A stretch of 64,000 nucleotides of DNA, from NCBI GenBank assembly GCA_035480715.1, contig DATIHL010000015.1, positions 8,384 to 72,383 of the forward strand, in the 5' to 3' direction. The DNA comes from Candidatus Saccharimonadales bacterium. Lineage in GTDB: Bacteria > Patescibacteriota > Saccharimonadia > Saccharimonadales > UBA10212. Position numbers and translations under genes: made by a program. A model generated the notes under the pieces. That model worked only from the letters and a program-made list of their open reading frames with translations, had not been told where the DNA came from and searched no databases. Of the stretch, positions 4,359 to 35,794 are shown piece by piece; within the stretch, counting starts at the first letter, position 1, and each line of letters starts with the position of its first letter.

Positions 4359-7300
4359 GTGGACAAGGAGTTTAGGAAAGCTTTTGCTGGCTTAAATGAC
4401 CAGCAGAAAAAGGCCGTTGAGACAATCAATGGACCAGTTTTAGTTATTGCAGGGCCGGGAACTGGTAAAACTGAGCTTCTAGCACTTAGGGCGGCTAATA
4501 TTTTAAAAACCGATACGACGATGTTACCCAGCAATATTTTGTGCCTGACGTTTACTAATTCGGCGTCCAATAACATGCTAGAGCGGCTTATAAAATACAT
4601 CGGCCAGGACGCCTATCAGGTAGCCATTCATACTTTTAATAGCTTCGGTGCTTACGTAATGAATGCCTATCCGGAATATTTTTATGAGTGGCGCGAAACT
4701 AAGACGGCCGACGAGCTGACGACTCACAGCATATTGGAAAACATCTTAAGCCAGCTGCCGGGGAACCATCCTTTGGCCGCCAAAAACGCTGATGGGCTTT
4801 TTTACGCCCAGACACAGATTAAAAATCTAATCGGCGATTCTAAACGGGCAGACCTCTCGCCAGATGACCTGCGCCAAATACTAAAAGAAAATAAGCAAAC
4901 TTATCAGCTTTTAACTCCGCTATTTAGGGAATTTTGGCCGGAGCGGATATCTGTCAAAACCGCGCTGGGTGACATCAATAAATTAATTGATAAATTGACG
5001 GAACTAAAGCCGGCAAGAGGTAAAATTGAAGCCGTTGTACCGCTGCAAAATATGATTGTAAGCTCATTGCAGCGAGAAGCAGAGGAATCGGGGCAACTGG
5101 AGAGTGGGCGCACAAAGCCATTTACGGCCTGGAAGAATCAGTGGCTGGAGAAGGATGAAGAAAATCAGATAATTTTTACGGGCGAAAGAAACCACGAGCG
5201 GCTGCTGGCCGCTGCCGACATTTACGAAAAATACCAAGCCGAGCTGGAAGCTCAAAGTCTAGTCGACTTTAATGACCAGATAATGTGGGTGATTGAGGCT
5301 ATGGAGAAGCATCCGGAGCTGCGTTACAACCTGCAGGAGCGCTTCCAGTACATAATGATCGACGAGTTTCAGGACACCAACCGCTCGCAACTGCTTATGA
5401 CCAGATATCTAACTGACGCGCTGGCGCATGAAGGCCGACCGAATATTTTAGCTGTTGGCGACGACGACCAGGCGATTTACCGCTTTCAGGGAGCCGATAT
5501 CGCCAATGTAGCATTATTTGAGCAAATGTATAAAGATCCGGCGGAAATCACATTGGAAGTCAATTATCGCAGCAACCAGGATATTCTAACGTCCTCTAGA
5601 CAAGTCAGCCGCCAAATTACTGCCTCGCTAGAGAAAGAAAAATCGATTATCAAGCAGCTTAAATCGACGGTCGCTAAGCTAGGCGAGGGCGTTAAGCTAA
5701 ATGAATTCGATCAAGAATCGCAACATTACAGCTACATAGCCTTGGAAATTAAGAAGCTGCTCAAAAAAGGCGTGGAGGGCAAAGAAATCGCCGTTTTGGC
5801 CCGCGAACGAGTGCAGCTGGACGCGCTAGTACCCTATATGCGCGAGCAGCAGATCCCTATCAGCTACGAGCGGCGCGAAAACGTGCTAAGCCAGTCACAC
5901 ATAATTAACCTGCTAGCGATGGCAAAGCTAATTTACTGGCTGGAGCGGCAGGAGCTAGAACGTGCCAACGAACTGTTTGCGCAAGTTTTAAGCGAGCCGA
6001 TGTGGCAGATTGAAGCGACTGAGATATGGCAGGTAGCGACAGAAGCTTATAGTTCGGAGCGCTTTTGGCTAGACGTTATAAGCGACAAAAAAGATGGCAA
6101 ATGCAAAGATATTGCTGATTTCTTTATCCGACTGGGCTTTGCCAGCGCCACCACGCCGCTAGAGCAGATGCTGGATGAGTTAATTGGCACCGAATCTATG
6201 GGCGCCCAAGACGAACACGACGAAGAAGCTGCGCCAGAGCCAAGAAACTTTTTCTCGCCGTTCAAGCAGTATTATTTTGGCGAGGAAATCCTAAAAGATA
6301 AGCCGGCCGAGTATTTAACACTGCTAAGCCATCTGGCCACGCTGCGGCGGCATCTTAGGAACTTCCAAGCCGATACGCACAAGACTTTATATATCAAAGA
6401 CCTGATCGAGCTGGTCGACGCCTACGAGCACGCTGGAATGGTGATGCTGGACCAGGCTCAGCACAACGAAGATGGCAATGCCGTACAGATGATGACTGTC
6501 CATAAGGCCAAAGGTTTGGAATTTGACGTAGTGTTTGTAGTTGGCTTGCAAAATGATGTCTGGACTCGGAGTGTATCGCGCGGCCGCTTTGCTTATCCGT
6601 CTAATCTCAAGCCGATTAAGCCCAGCGATAACCAGAACGACGATGCCCTGCGACTTTTGTTTGTAGCGATGACGCGTGCCCGCCAATCGTTATATCTTAA
6701 TTACTTTAAGCAGGATGAAGACACTAGTCCGACTCAACCTTATTCGGCCCTGCTGGGCATAGACGTCCAATCTATCAAGCCCAAAACTAAAGATGAACCC
6801 GAGGCGCTGGCCCGCGAATATGAACACCGTTGGCTCGCGCAGTTGGGCAACCTGCGCAGTAGCCAGATGGCACCGTACTTTGAGCAGCAGCTGCAAAACT
6901 ACCGGCTTAGCACTACTCATCTTAATAATTTTATAGATGTTAGCATGGGCGGACCGGCGTATTTCTTTGAGCAGAATCTGGTGCATTTTCCGGCAGCAAA
7001 GAGTTCGATGGCAGTCTATGGCACAGTTATGCATGCGGCCTTGAGTAGAGCCCACAGTGAGGTATTAGAAGGCAAGCTACTAAGCCCGAAGCGAATTATT
7101 AAAGGCTTTATAGCCGATATTAACAATGAAGCCTTGAGTCAAACAGATAAAGAATACTATGCCGATCGAGGGGCAAAGTCATTGAAGGTTTTTTTGTCTA
7201 GGCAAGGTGAGGGTTTTAGTAAAACTCAGTTGGTCGATTACGATTTTGGCCGGCAGGGAGTAGCTATTGGCAGCTCTAAGCTTAGAGGCATGATTGATTT

Positions 7301-31689: not shown

Positions 31690-33000
31690 GTGAGTAAATC
31701 AGTACCGATAGTGGCCTTAGTTGGCCGTGCCAACGTGGGAAAATCCAGCCTTTTTAACGCGCTAATTGGGCGTCGTGAGGCTATTGTCGCTAAAGAAGCC
31801 GGTACAACTCGAGATAGAGTAACCGCTAAAGCCAGCTATGGCGGAAAGGATTTCTGGCTAGTAGATACAGCCGGCATGAAGATCGCCGAAGATGATTTTG
31901 AGCTTAGTATTCAAGATCAAATCACGCAGGCAGCCGATAGCGCTGATCAAATAATAGTAGTTGTGGAGGCCGACGTACCAGTAACAGAGGAGGATAGGCG
32001 TGTCGCCACGATGGCCTTAAAAAGTCGCAAATCCGTTACCTTAGTAGTTAATAAAATAGATAAAAACCAAAAAGCTGACCTGGCACAGTGGCAGACACTA
32101 GGAATAAAGACCATTCTGGCCACCAGCACTACCCAAAAGCTCGGTATCGAGGGGGTATTGGAGCTTACTGCTGACAATTTACCGCACAGTAGAATACGCG
32201 AGCAGGAAAACCGCATCCATTTAGCAATACTCGGGCGACCAAATGTTGGCAAATCTTCGTTGTTTAACACTTTAGCAGCCAAGCAACAGGCCTTGGTCGC
32301 AGAGCAGGCAGGTACCACGCGGGATGTGAATCGTTTGGTGGTTCGTTATCATGATCGAGAGGTTGAACTGGCTGATACCGCTGGGATTCGCCGTAGCGGT
32401 AAGATTGAACGCGGGGTAGAGAAATTTAGCGTGCTCAGATCTTTAGCGGCTATCGAGCAATCAGATATCTGTCTTCTTGTGATGGATGCAACCGAGTTAA
32501 ATACTCAACTTGATCAGAAAATCGCCGGTTTAATTAAAGAAGCTGGCAAAGGCTTGATAGTAGTAGTCAATAAGTGGGATGAGGTTGAAGACAGCTTAAA
32601 AAGAGATACGGCCGCAGCTCAAGTAGTACGCGAATTTGCATTTATACCATGGACGCCGCTGATTTTTACTAGTGCAGTTACGGGACAAAATGTTACCAAA
32701 ATATACGACCTGGTCGTAGAAATAGCCGAAGCCAGATTGCAAAAGTTTAAAACTACCGAACTCAATAAATGGTTGCGGCGAGCCGTTGATTCTCATGAAC
32801 CGCCGCCGCTACGGGGTCGTATGCCGAAACTGAATTACATGGTCCAAGAAGATGACCAGGATTTTCCTAATTTCAAGATATTTGGCGCACATACTAAGTT
32901 CTTGCACTGGAGCTATAAGCGCTATCTCGAGCGCAAATTCCGCGAGCAATGGCCATTGATTGGGACGCCGTTGAAGTTTTGGTTTATTGAGAAAAACTAA
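31690..33000 (+). CDS. der: Ribosome-biogenesis GTPase Der (EngA)
   Basis: GTG start. Two tandem GTPase domains (GRANVGKSSLFN...DTAG; GRPNVGKSSLFN...DTAG...NKWD) plus a KH-like C-terminus. Confidence 0.9.
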   Translation: MSKSVPIVALVGRANVGKSSLFNALIGRREAIVAKEAGTTRDRVTAKASYGGKDFWLVDTAGMKIAEDDFELSIQDQITQAADSADQIIVVVEADVPVTEEDRRVATMALKSRKSVTLVVNKIDKNQKADLAQWQTLGIKTILATSTTQKLGIEGVLELTADNLPHSRIREQENRIHLAILGRPNVGKSSLFNTLAAKQQALVAEQAGTTRDVNRLVVRYHDREVELADTAGIRRSGKIERGVEKFSVLRSLAAIEQSDICLLVMDATELNTQLDQKIAGLIKEAGKGLIVVVNKWDEVEDSLKRDTAAAQVVREFAFIPWTPLIFTSAVTGQNVTKIYDLVVEIAEARLQKFKTTELNKWLRRAVDSHEPPPLRGRMPKLNYMVQEDDQDFPNFKIFGAHTKFLHWSYKRYLERKFREQWPLIGTPLKFWFIEKN

Positions 33001-33371: not shown

Positions 33372-34007
33372 ATGGCTCTGTTTCAGAAAAAACCTCAAGT
33401 CCAGTCGAGTGCGCCCCTCTACACTTTAGGCGCTAACAAAACACTACTAGTTATTGGTTTAGGTAATCCGGGCAAAGAATATGTCGGCAGCCGGCATAAT
33501 GTTGGTTTTGAGATGATTGATAACTTTGCTAAACAAAATGATTTCCCGGATTGGACACAGAAAAAAGACCTAAAATGCCTCATCACGGTGGCAACTCTGG
33601 GCGAGAATAGGGTAGTGCTATGCAAACCTACAACCTTCATGAATCAGAGCGGTGAGGCCGCACAGGCACTGCAGCATTTTTACCGTGTGTACAACCAGCA
33701 AACACTAGTTATTTATGACGAGCTGGCAATCCCGTTTGGGCAACTTAGAACAAGGGTAGGAGGCACTGACGCCGGCCACAATGGCGTAAAATCGCTCCTG
33801 CAGCATATCGGCGAGGATTTTGGGCGCTTACGCATTGGTATTGGTAGCGATTTGGCGCAAAAATCCGACGCCGCCGAATTTGTATTAAAAAAATTTAGCA
33901 AAGTAGAGCAGGGACACCTGCCGCAAATTCTACGCGAAGCCAACGCCTTGATTACTGAATATATTTTTGGTGAGGGCTTGCCGCACCAAACCCGCACTGT
34001 TTTATGA
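33372..34007 (+). CDS. pth: Peptidyl-tRNA hydrolase
   Basis: LLVIGLGNPGKEYVGSRHNVGF...MNQSGEA...DAGHNG. Confidence 0.9.
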   Translation: MALFQKKPQVQSSAPLYTLGANKTLLVIGLGNPGKEYVGSRHNVGFEMIDNFAKQNDFPDWTQKKDLKCLITVATLGENRVVLCKPTTFMNQSGEAAQALQHFYRVYNQQTLVIYDELAIPFGQLRTRVGGTDAGHNGVKSLLQHIGEDFGRLRIGIGSDLAQKSDAAEFVLKKFSKVEQGHLPQILREANALITEYIFGEGLPHQTRTVL

Positions 34008-34286
34008 ACTAAAACCTATAGGATAAGGTTTTTCGTTTGGTTCTAGTAAGGCATGGATTGCCGCTAATTGACCGACGTGATGCTGAGCGGCTTGAACTCT
34101 TTCAGAATCAATGTTGGGTCGTTTACGATTTGGACGCGCTAATCGGTCTTCGTGATCATAAATTAGATCCAGAAGTGTTCGCGAGGCTTCTGTTAATTCC
34201 ATGCCCGAGTGCATAGCTCCAATAGTGACTTCTAGGGCTCCGTCTATAGCAGGAGATGGGATATCCGAGATTTTACGTTTACTCAT
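34002..34286 (-). CDS. Hypothetical protein
   Basis: 94-aa ORF convergent with pth. No recognisable motif. Confidence 0.4.
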   Translation of the reverse strand: MSKRKISDIPSPAIDGALEVTIGAMHSGMELTEASRTLLDLIYDHEDRLARPNRKRPNIDSERVQAAQHHVGQLAAIHALLEPNEKPYPIGFSS

Positions 34287-34338
34287 CTTTTATATGATAA
34301 CATTTTTAATTAATTTAGTCAACTTCCTAACTCCTGGT

Positions 34339-34711
34339 CCTTGCATGTGGATGCAGTACAAGGAAACAACGAGGAGCGAGCAAGTCGTATTTAAATACGG
34401 TGAGCGAGCCCCACAGACAGGTGACGCGGTAATGCGCCACAAGACCGCCGGCATGCCTAGCTTTGCTGGGGAGCAGGGCGGGCGGTGCAAGGGCCAGAAC
34501 CTAAAGAGCTCCAGAGGGGGTGGGCACCGCTGGAGCTCATTACACCCTTCAACCCACCATCCGCGAAGCATCGAAGATCTGCAAACGCAAGATTCATTCG
34601 AGCCATCCTGATTACTCAAGATTGTCCGCGTGAGCGGACCCGCCTACCCACATAGGGAGTGTAGTTAAAGGGGTTAGTTTGTCCAAGACGTGCCGCTCCA
34701 TCATTGTTTCC
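34339..34711 (+). ncRNA. Candidate structured RNA of unknown class: possibly a highly divergent RNase P RNA, or an unclassified RNA or MITE-like element. Strand is uncertain.
   Basis: A G+C-rich, non-coding-looking segment is closed by 14 bp of long-range pairing, 34362-34378 with 34694-34711. Internal hairpins lie at 34506-34538 and at 34624-34639 (with a GUGA tetraloop). Plus-strand strings resemble RNase P S-domain conserved regions, but I found no GGAAAGUCC P4 core. Confidence 0.4.
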
Positions 34712-34930
34712 TAGCTTAAGCAATTGCCATCGCACGAAGTGCCAAATATACTAAGCAACAAGGAAGGAGCGGCTCGTAGTAAGTGGAGGGTACAACTTAC
34801 TAGCTTCTTGGACAATCTAACAAAATGTTAGAAATTGGGGGTATAAGGTGCAGTAAGCATAAAATAATGCTTACGGATTGCAATTTTAGCAAAAAAGTGT
34901 CGTGATGTCAATACTTAAAAATAATAATGC

Positions 34931-35794
34931 ATGAAAGTCAATACTCTTAAGCTTACTCCATCAAATTATCCTGATGTTCTCCGGCAAATATCTAGCCCAC
35001 CGAAGCAGCTATACTGGAGAGGAGTACCTTTAGAAGAAGTAATTTTAAAGCCAAGAGTCGCAATAGTCGGCAGCCGAAAAGCTACTCCATATGGTCGAAC
35101 AATTACAGAGGATTTGGCGACTAGGCTGGCGCGTGCTGGCGTAGTAATTATTAGCGGTCTGGCTTTCGGCATTGATTCTTATGCCCATAAGGCGACCTTA
35201 GCTGCTGGCGGCTGCACTATAGCTGTGCTACCATCACCAATTCAGAAAGTCGCACCAGCCACACATCATCATCTGGCCGAGCAAATAGTTAAGAATGGCG
35301 GCGCACTGACAAGTGAATACTCTGAGCATGAAGATGTTCATGTTGTTAATTTCATTGCGCGTAACCGTATTGTCAGTGGCCTGGCAGATGTTTTATTAAT
35401 AACAGAGGCTGCTAAAAATAGCGGCAGTTTACATACTGCGCGATTTGCGCTCGAGCAGGGTAAAACCGTGATGGCAGTACCCGGCAATATCAACAGTCCA
35501 ACCTCCGAAGGCTGTAACAATCTAATAAAAAGCGGGGCCGTGCCAGTGACCGGTATAGAAGATGTATTCTTTGCCTTAGGTATGGACCTACAACCTAAAC
35601 AAGCCATCAAAGTATTTAAAGGCACCAGCGAGCAGCAACTTATCTATAAACTTATTACACAGGGCATCAAAGACCAAGAAGAGCTGGCTCAAAGCAGTCA
35701 AATGGCCGTCCCACAGATTAGCAGTACGCTGACTACTCTGGAGCTACAAGGCTACATCCGCCCTATAGGCGCCGGCAGCTGGACAATAGCCTGA
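34931..35794 (+). CDS. dprA: DNA-processing protein DprA (Smf)
   Basis: VAIVGSRKATPYGRTITEDLATRLARAGVVIISGLAFGIDSYAHKATL and a C-terminal winged-helix-like region. Confidence 0.88.
   Translation: MKVNTLKLTPSNYPDVLRQISSPPKQLYWRGVPLEEVILKPRVAIVGSRKATPYGRTITEDLATRLARAGVVIISGLAFGIDSYAHKATLAAGGCTIAVLPSPIQKVAPATHHHLAEQIVKNGGALTSEYSEHEDVHVVNFIARNRIVSGLADVLLITEAAKNSGSLHTARFALEQGKTVMAVPGNINSPTSEGCNNLIKSGAVPVTGIEDVFFALGMDLQPKQAIKVFKGTSEQQLIYKLITQGIKDQEELAQSSQMAVPQISSTLTTLELQGYIRPIGAGSWTIA

Follow-up and report, generated by a model that had tools for sequence, protein, structure and literature searches.

The 643-nt gap upstream of dprA in a 64,000-nt chromosome segment of a Candidatus Saccharimonadales bacterium (Saccharibacteria), hereafter the window, appears to hold two unrelated structured elements on opposite strands, a reading to which we assign a probability of about 0.75. 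The first is a gene of ~380 nt for a structured RNA, and the second is a module of ~170 nt, here called module 2. In both, compensatory substitutions exceed those seen in controls, as expected of structured non-coding RNA. Module 2, in addition, occurs as the same element at non-homologous sites and is present in some relatives and absent from others, as expected of a mobile element. Bacteria of the candidate phyla radiation (CPR) such as Saccharibacteria have genomes of ~1 Mb with almost no spare DNA. The retention, in every locus examined, of an RNA with a consensus promoter, 50 or more covarying pairs and invariant loops of 10-16 nt suggests an important function that is missing from annotation.

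Conservation and position of the RNA gene

The DprA protein of the window is identical to an NCBI protein of a metagenome-assembled genome, encoded on a 165,820-bp contig. Relatives were collected by a DprA-anchored scan with one genome per species, which gave 47 loci, 33 of them from Saccharibacteria; homologues were detected with nhmmer and blastn, and metagenome loci were retrieved by a sequence pattern of the 3' core, with at least 120 contigs matching. One full-length copy of the RNA was found by nhmmer in all 30 Saccharibacteria genome loci that retain DNA upstream of dprA, and the full RNA in every one of the at least 120 metagenome loci listed, these being pattern-retrieved. A protein search with DprA for distant or cultured Saccharibacteria returned close relatives only (identity of at least 57%), and the lineages sampled are those of soil, groundwater and peat, which sets a limit to the phylogenetic breadth of these counts. 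Within the set of loci no copy was detected by nhmmer outside Saccharibacteria, including one locus of another CPR phylum; none was detected a second time elsewhere in the 64-kb window, and blastn found no homologue in collections of phages and plasmids.

Where flanking sequence exists, the order is der, pth, RNA, dprA and topA, with the RNA gene convergent with pth and divergent from dprA and topA. The conserved block extends from ~34498 to 34926, up to the start of dprA, and in most relatives abuts the stop codon of pth; the G+C-rich left part of the gap (34339-34497) is common to few relatives only. The RNA is no mere accessory of dprA, since 14 loci without this gene retain it between pth and topA. 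In a sizeable subgroup of Saccharibacteria dprA is lost or located elsewhere; the loci in which it is missing between the RNA and topA are L085, L092, L095, L096, L106, L108, L113, L118, L124, L143, L145, L152, L153 and L166.

Several individual loci show further peculiarities. On an IMG/VR contig (L168) the RNA lies beside methylase, FtsK-like and RecT-like genes, with neither dprA nor topA within 8 kb. The same contig carries, at 6853-6886, 1.1 kb from the RNA and on the opposite strand, a lone hairpin GACGTG-CGGTGCCCACCCCCT-CACGTC with a different stem and the same invariant loop, which adjoins the RecT-like, FtsK-like and DNA methylase genes. In L141, identical copies of the terminal hairpin (AGCCTCCAGCGGTGCCCACCCCCTCTGGAGGCT followed by a T-run) at 879-923 and ~1600-1650 flank a 206-aa open reading frame (ORF) on the strand of the RNA, which looks like a cassette inserted at the 3' end of the RNA with duplication of the hairpin, in the manner of an att site. 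L137 and L027 have other insertions, located within the central domain and ahead of the terminal hairpin. Two loci labelled Candidatus Limnocylindria/Limnocylindrales, Chloroflexota (L025, L026) have the pth-RNA-dprA arrangement of the Saccharibacteria type and are probably mis-binned Saccharibacteria contigs; in L025 the RNA gene carries an insertion of ~170 nt between segments GUUAAAGGG and UUAGUUUGU. Two inverted RNA copies in L122 (983-1375 and 2909-3311), with dprA fragments between them, look like an inverted-duplication assembly artefact and not like biology.

Boundaries, promoter and strand

The first-pass annotation of the window had described 34339-34775 as a single structured unit of ~370 nt in a gap without credible coding ORF. 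The latter point holds, as the ORFs of gap 34287-34930 overlap one another and are not conserved, and the contrast in G+C to which it had drawn attention (41/60 in 34441-34500 vs 13/60 in 34261-34320) is exact on recount. Structure is present too, segment 34330-34790 being more stably folded than its shuffled versions whichever strand is read (plus, z = -3.3; minus, z = -4.2), but boundaries and strand had to be revised: conservation begins at ~34498 and runs to the start of dprA, and the first 100 nt at the 5' end of the RNA lie outside the unit as first drawn. The conserved object is a minus-strand gene, as shown by the orientation of a promoter conserved in relatives and by the mismatches in the stem at 34506-34538, which in the plus-strand alignment are consistently C.A or A.C, that is, G.U on the other strand. 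In the core pairs, read on the minus strand, G.U cells exceed A.C cells by 137 to 22, and the RNA gene is assigned to this strand on that ground.

The promoter, TTGACA-17-TAAAAT, scores 11/12 plus TG in a promoter scan, near the sigma-70 consensus, and the final 45 conserved bases before dprA carry it on the minus strand as TTGACA-17 nt-TGcTAAAAT. The RNA measures 330-510 nt in relatives; with corrected boundaries, the window copy folds with a minimum free energy (MFE) of -152 kcal/mol (z = -7.07). A protein-coding reading of the gap is excluded by 1-nt indels inside the most conserved blocks (GGU-GGG vs GGUGGGG; UUG-UACCC vs UUGUUACCC) together with the lack of conservation of the ORFs.

Secondary structure of the RNA

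Because the variable arms aligned too poorly in MAFFT to support a covariance model of the whole RNA, anchored core helices were used instead. The structure was obtained with RNAalifold on 30 minus-strand sequences, followed by an explicit count of pairs with shuffled and slid controls. The core comprises 51 pairs, for which 93.1% of alignment cells can pair vs 83.0% in shuffles (0 of 500 as high) and 33-55% in slid controls, and 31 of the 51 pairs show compensatory double changes. The comparison of related pth-dprA spacers that the first-pass annotation had proposed as a check thus brought out covariation, on the minus strand for the RNA gene.

A 5' hairpin (H1) and a C-rich single strand are followed by the long-range helix H3, which encloses hairpin H4 and an optional arm, H5 (Table 1). 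The inner pairs of H4 are invariant or covary (AAGU/ACUU, GAGC/GCUC, UUGG/CCAA) and its outer pairs are weak. Most metagenome loci, and about a third of those from genomes, lack H5. Abutting H3 is helix Hx, formed by two invariant strands, whose terminal pair, C-G in 24 sequences, is replaced by G-C in L003, L019 and L024 and by A-U in L027, L029 and L042, and in no others. The domain enclosed by Hx varies from 95 to 196 nt, with hairpins that differ between lineages; one of them, in the window, had been taken for a GUGA tetraloop of the GNRA type, which on the actual RNA strand reads UCAC. A G-rich strand after this domain could form a pseudoknot with the loop of the terminal hairpin. This pairing was pointed out in the first-pass annotation; its complementarity is present and the pseudoknot is plausible in the modelled fold, but both strands are near-invariant, so that covariation lends it no support.

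Table 1. Location of predicted elements of the RNA gene, of module 2 and of neighbouring genes in the window.
Feature	Position	Strand	Remarks
Structured RNA gene	34497-34878	-	5' end placed from promoter (start ~34874-34879), 3' end from hairpin and U-tract, both inferred
-35 hexamer TTGACA	34906-34911	-	best promoter site in 33900-35100; conserved in relatives
Extended -10 TGcTAAAAT	34883-34891	-	near-invariant as TTTTAGCA on plus strand of alignment
H1, 5' hairpin GUAAGCAU/AUGCUUAC	34851-34875	-	90% paired; compensatory changes in 4/8 pairs
C-rich single strand GCACCUUAUACCCCCAA	34835-34851	-	near-invariant in alignments
H3 5' strand GUUAGAUUGUCCAAGA	34806-34821	-	long-range helix of 16 pairs, 95.5% paired, 12 with compensatory changes
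H3 3' strand UCUUGGACAAACUAAC	34673-34688	-	partner of 34821-34806
H4 hairpin	34777-34802	-	invariant loop UGUACCCUCC (has CCUCC); 78% paired overall
H5, long variable hairpin	34689-34776	-	optional arm within H3; long-form RNAs only
Promoter-like TTGCCA-17-TATACT	34724-34752	+	candidate; within H5, antisense to the RNA, toward dprA; 10/12
Hx 5' strand CCCUUUAAC	34664-34672	-	directly after H3
Hx 3' strand GUUGAAGGG	34545-34553	-	pairs with 34672-34664
Variable multi-hairpin central domain	34559-34663	-	inside Hx; includes GUCCGC/GCGGAC hairpin 34624-34639; per-sequence and constrained folds
GGUGGG	34553-34558	-	candidate pseudoknot partner of CCCACC 34519-34524 in terminal loop
Terminal hairpin	34506-34538	-	stem 98% paired; compensatory changes in 8/9 pairs
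Terminal loop CGGUGCCCACCCCCU	34515-34529	-	15 nt, invariant; includes CCCACC
U-rich tail CUUUAGGUU	34497-34505	-	putative 3' end; doubles as outer flank of module 2
Module 2	34328-34501	+ (probable)	G+C-rich, Y-shaped three-way-junction element of ~170 nt; covariance model 142 bits in window
der	31690-33000	+	neighbour gene; small hypothetical gene between der and pth
pth	33372-34007	+	neighbour gene
94-aa ORF	34002-34286	-	between pth and gap
Gap	34287-34930		643 nt; between 94-aa ORF and dprA
dprA	34931-35794	+	topA next

Several points weigh against this description of the RNA. The retrieval pattern itself requires GGTGGG..TTRAAGGGTG..GGTGCCCACCCC, and the invariance of these blocks is an unbiased observation only in the 30 genome loci. 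Both ends of the transcript are placed solely by the consensus of promoter and hairpin, and the terminator scan made no call at the terminal hairpin, the loop of which exceeds 8 nt. The pseudoknot, like the role of the C-rich loops discussed below, draws on invariant sequence without covariation. Finally, the MFE structure is an alternative fold that competes with Hx, in which the 5' C-rich strand pairs with the G-rich strand. Such a fold might indicate switching; L029 and L030 alter one of its sides without compensation, and thus both informative variants fail to support it.

Module 2, a sporadic structured element

The left part of the gap is occupied by module 2, which is closed by CTGGTCCTTGCA/TGCAAGGGCCAG. 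Of the 53 pairs that an alignment of 12 copies supports, 44 show compensatory changes, and pairing reaches 88.9% vs 68.4% in shuffles and 31-46% in slid controls. Module 2 is probably read on the plus strand, on which all six copies first found fold better and on which the window copy gives z = -3.15. G.U cells exceed A.C cells by 49 to 20 in this reading, a count made on a structure predicted from that same strand, which keeps the strand call moderate.

With the covariance model, 15 copies were found in ~1.03 Mb, one of them in the 64-kb window. Ten copies begin right after the U-tail of the RNA, in antisense orientation; most loci that carry the RNA lack module 2. The remaining locations are diverse. 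In L011 module 2 lies within der (894-2408), which encodes an essential GTPase, as an insert at ~2100-2274 that adds ~57 aa in frame and without stop between VQELEYYDYP and SFKIFGAH, the ORF being otherwise intact and the rest of the Der protein 63% identical to that of the window; this arrangement fits read-through translation. In L126 (3811-3987) it is found in sense orientation within the RNA gene itself, in the loop bounded by CUAAC and GUUAG, a place in which insertions are seen in other lineages too. In L017 it lies in opposite orientation at the stop codon of a gene for a sigma factor, and in L097 between dprA and topA; there is a tandem copy in L161 and fragments in L030. Module 2 is apparently mobile, because it occupies different sites in different relatives and is present only sporadically, and in our judgement it is somewhat more likely than not a mobile insertion element akin to palindromic elements and dependent on its structure. 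The suggestion in the first-pass annotation of an element resembling a miniature inverted-repeat transposable element (MITE) was therefore roughly right for these left 170 nt (34328-34501), which differ in location between relatives, but does not extend to a conserved terminal repeat sequence or to high copy number.

The evidence is less favourable to mobility in other respects. No conserved terminal inverted repeat, no target-site duplication and no multiplicity of copies per genome was found at the copies of module 2 and their junctions; the sequence of the closing helices changes from copy to copy, with covariation. Copies are few, one in 64 kb, and the strong covariation and conserved internal-loop bases of the element also fit a functional small RNA. 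Module 2 could thus be immobile, either as an independent small RNA gene or as a 3' accessory domain tied to the large RNA, and the placement of 10 of the 15 copies exactly at the tail of the RNA, in addition to exceptional covariation, speaks for such an account. It is nonetheless the less likely one, in view of the copies in an intact der, in the RNA gene, at the sigma-factor stop codon and in the dprA-topA spacer, of the tandem and partial copies, and of the many RNA-carrying loci from which module 2 is missing.

As a mobile element, module 2 would resemble the palindromic elements of Rickettsia and MITEs, which are likewise non-coding, ~100-200 nt long, rich in extensive hairpins and scattered among genomes, and, like them, it resides in frame in an essential protein gene (der, L011) and also within a gene for a stable RNA. 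Unlike these elements, it is very low-copy, has covarying terminal helices without a repeat sequence that is kept, shows no visible target-site duplication, retains conserved internal-loop nucleotides and strongly prefers the U-tail of the RNA. This raises the question of how a low-copy element that conserves its structure moves, and why it targets the tail of the RNA.

Other interpretations of module 2 were set aside. No conserved ORF was found in module 2, most frames of its copies containing stops, and there was no Rfam match to it. A self-splicing intron, as its positions in der and in the RNA gene might suggest, is not compatible with the lack of an Rfam intron match and with a 170-nt three-way junction devoid of a group I or group II core. 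A link with the small ORF at 34002-34286 was also rejected, as a homologue of the ORF occurs without module 2 (L022) and module 2 occurs elsewhere without the ORF.

Possible role of the RNA

It is a little short of an even chance, in our judgement, that the RNA represents a near-universal RNA of Saccharibacteria with a pseudoknotted core, acting as a new housekeeping ribonucleoprotein (RNP) or ribozyme confined to this epibiotic lineage with its reduced genomes, with core invariance comparable to that of RNase P RNA or transfer-messenger RNA (tmRNA), and that its 3' hairpin serves as landing site for a new structure-dependent mobile element, one able to reside within genes for proteins and RNAs as well. 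More specifically, and more tentatively, we propose an abundant trans-acting RNA of the housekeeping type, which would serve as scaffold of an RNP or act by base pairing, with C-rich loops offered to a protein or to partners rich in G. The invariant nucleotides cluster in four segments rich in C, namely CCCUUUAAC, the 5' strand GCACCUUAUACCCCC and the loops of H4 and of the terminal hairpin, and the sole G-rich strand in the RNA is GGUGGG-UUGAAGGGUGU. Hx and the pseudoknot would consume this G-rich strand, so that a stacked core of H3, Hx and pseudoknot would expose the 5' strand, the loop of H4 and some of the terminal loop. The invariant loops rich in C, two or three in number (UACCCUCC, ACCCCC and CCCACCCCCU), would then be displayed on a rigid core and offered to G-rich RNA or a protein.

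Several exposed C-rich motifs in loops or single strands are also a feature of RsaE/RoxS and RNAIII of Firmicutes, where they pair with G-rich ribosome-binding sites. The RNA described here differs from these in its much larger size and in having invariant blocks of 10-16 nt instead of seeds of 4-6 nt. Moreover, Shine-Dalgarno-like motifs are rare upstream of genes in the window (GGAGG at 2 of 52 ORF starts, in A/T-rich upstream sequence), which counts against a pairing role of this kind and makes Shine-Dalgarno targets unlikely. An anti-Shine-Dalgarno mimic or sponge, which had been considered as well, is weakened by the same rarity. The upstream sequences suggest that initiation in this genome may be mostly Shine-Dalgarno-independent or leaderless.

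The position of the gene also invites the idea that its main role is cis control of dprA-topA, by competition between promoters or by antisense pairing with a 5' untranslated region (UTR) of dprA that starts in H5. The two promoters stand back to back, the -35 element of the RNA gene being only 20 nt from the dprA ATG, and dprA or topA is in each case transcribed divergently from the RNA. Among 108 RNAs, the 25 that retain the TTGCCA-17-TATACT motif within H5 (read as AGUAUA...GGCAA on the strand of the RNA) are all long forms; this antisense site may be the dprA promoter, in which case the mRNA would begin with a 5' UTR complementary to the initial ~130 nt of the RNA. As an account of the main role, however, cis control is improbable: the H5 motif is lacking in 83 of the 108 RNAs, the RNA is retained where dprA is absent, and in L168 neither dprA nor topA is found within 8 kb. 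Antisense pairing or occlusion, furthermore, needs neither a covarying structure of 51 pairs nor invariant loops. Some cis control of dprA-topA may accompany the trans-acting function proposed above, but it cannot account for the conserved core.

Some Saccharibacteria can now be cultivated and are naturally transformable. The predictable position between pth and dprA/topA makes the RNA gene easy to test.

Relation to known RNA families

At gathering scores, Rfam models detected only two tRNAs in the whole window. With E<=10, searches of the gap and of 34000-35100 gave only chance microRNA-like matches to one hairpin, and permissive searches of 15 homologous loci gave no family match, the microRNA-like hits, which arise from H5, being inconsistent across homologues. 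The Rfam 15 models of orphan and large families, among them OLE, ROOL, GOLLD, HEARO and raiA, and those of 6S RNA and signal recognition particle (SRP) RNA did not match the gap or the 15 homologous loci. The Rfam scan called for in the first-pass annotation thus yielded no confident match to a known family. According to a transcriptome paper on the cultured strain TM7x, no small RNAs have been validated in this strain (bioRxiv 10.1101/2022.03.25.485537), and the annotation pipeline PGAP lists only 2 non-coding RNAs in an oral Saccharibacterium (PMC8830319). Literature searches found no published description of an RNA such as this one. We treat it as a new class because it matches no known family and has no description in the literature, and judge from these comparisons that it quite likely is one. 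Its naming as an unclassified large structured RNA, one of three options in the first-pass annotation, stands for minus-strand ~34878-34497, but not for plus-strand 34339-34775.

New large, intricately folded bacterial RNAs are rare, and those recognized earlier proved to act as ribozymes, as scaffolds of RNPs or by forming cages. The RNA shares with OLE, ROOL, GOLLD, raiA and HEARO a lineage-restricted distribution, unusually large size, intricate folding and discovery by comparative genomics ahead of function. It differs from them in matching none of their Rfam models, in belonging to a CPR phylum, Saccharibacteria, and in its fixed chromosomal position without association with phages or mobile elements.

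A universal RNA such as tmRNA, 6S RNA or SRP RNA could have diverged too far for current models. The strong promoter, single copy and syntenic location give the gene a housekeeping look, its size and pseudoknot content recall tmRNA, it adjoins pth, the product of which acts on peptidyl-tRNA, and few non-coding RNAs are reported by PGAP (see above). Like tmRNA (ssrA), it would be a stand-alone gene of ~350-400 nt for a stable RNA with long-range helices and a probable pseudoknot, and its 3' end is a hot spot for insertions, as in tmRNA and tRNA genes (here module 2 in ten loci, and the L141 cassette with duplicated terminal hairpin). Yet ARAGORN, permuted forms included, called no tmRNA in the window or in 48 loci, and tmRNA, 6S and SRP models of Rfam gave no match at permissive thresholds. 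The RNA has no paired termini, acceptor stem, T-arm, CCA end or other tRNA-like domain, nor a universal tag ORF: the sole conserved ORF-like stretch lies in H5, which is missing from at least one third of the RNAs. It is also too long and branched for 6S RNA or a small SRP RNA. Divergence of this order within a universal family therefore appears quite improbable.

Still less can be said for a highly divergent RNase P RNA, which the first-pass annotation had put forward. RNase P RNA of type A (RF00010) is similar in size and likewise has a core built around a long-range helix of two invariant strands, which here recalls P4. A further resemblance, of GGGUUGAAGGGUG to GGGUGAAAGGGUG of Escherichia coli, is presumably superficial. 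Divergence is a known trait of RNase P RNAs in CPR bacteria, but RF00010 recovers them once thresholds are lowered, and it detects an RNase P RNA in both of two circular Saccharimonadia genomes (PMC8172020). In the present case, RNase P models gave no match at E<=10 in 34000-35100 (1.1 kb), at E<=0.5 in the window (64 kb) or at E<=5 in 15 homologous loci, that is, no hit even at noise level. The P4 strands GGAAAGUCC and ACAGAA..GGCUUA are absent on either strand, the CR-I and CR-V sequences are lacking, the 5' and 3' ends of the RNA are unpaired where a P1 helix would be expected, and the topology is a different one, two consecutive enclosing helices being followed by a 3' hairpin. The plus-strand strings that had been likened to the RNase P specificity domain all fall inside module 2, which is present only sporadically, and on the strand opposite to the RNA. 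An RNase P RNA at this site is accordingly very improbable, and removal of this false lead is a gain for annotation.

There is, lastly, virtually no chance that 34339-34775 is one plus-strand RNA closed by a 14-bp helix, as first drawn. The complementary strings exist, all at the coordinates given (GGAAACAA at 34362-34369 and GGAGCG at 34373-34378, opposite CGCTCC at 34694-34699 and TTGTTTCC at 34704-34711), as do the hairpin at 34506-34538, GGTGGG (34519-34524), CCCACC (34553-34558), GTCCGC-GTGA-GCGGAC (34624-34639) and GCAACAAGGAAGGAGCG (34755-34771), and the plus strand folds better than shuffles; but one arm of the helix belongs to module 2 and the other to the variable H5, so that it cannot form in the many relatives without module 2, and the break in conservation at ~34498, the independent occurrence of the two halves and the G.U asymmetry that assigns the right half to the minus strand all contradict a single unit. 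The pairing of the 3' strand of this helix with a downstream near-copy, proposed as an alternative, does exist (34688-34714 with 34751-34777), not as an alternative but as the local hairpin H5.

The small ORF between pth and the gap

The 94-aa ORF on the minus strand at 34002-34286 has a promoter-like sequence of its own, TTGACT-17-TATCAT, at 34322-34294 and no Pfam match. Homologues are found at the same place in L028 (54% identical), L022 (38%) and L024 (27%), and the ORF appears to encode a small conserved hypothetical protein of some lineages only.

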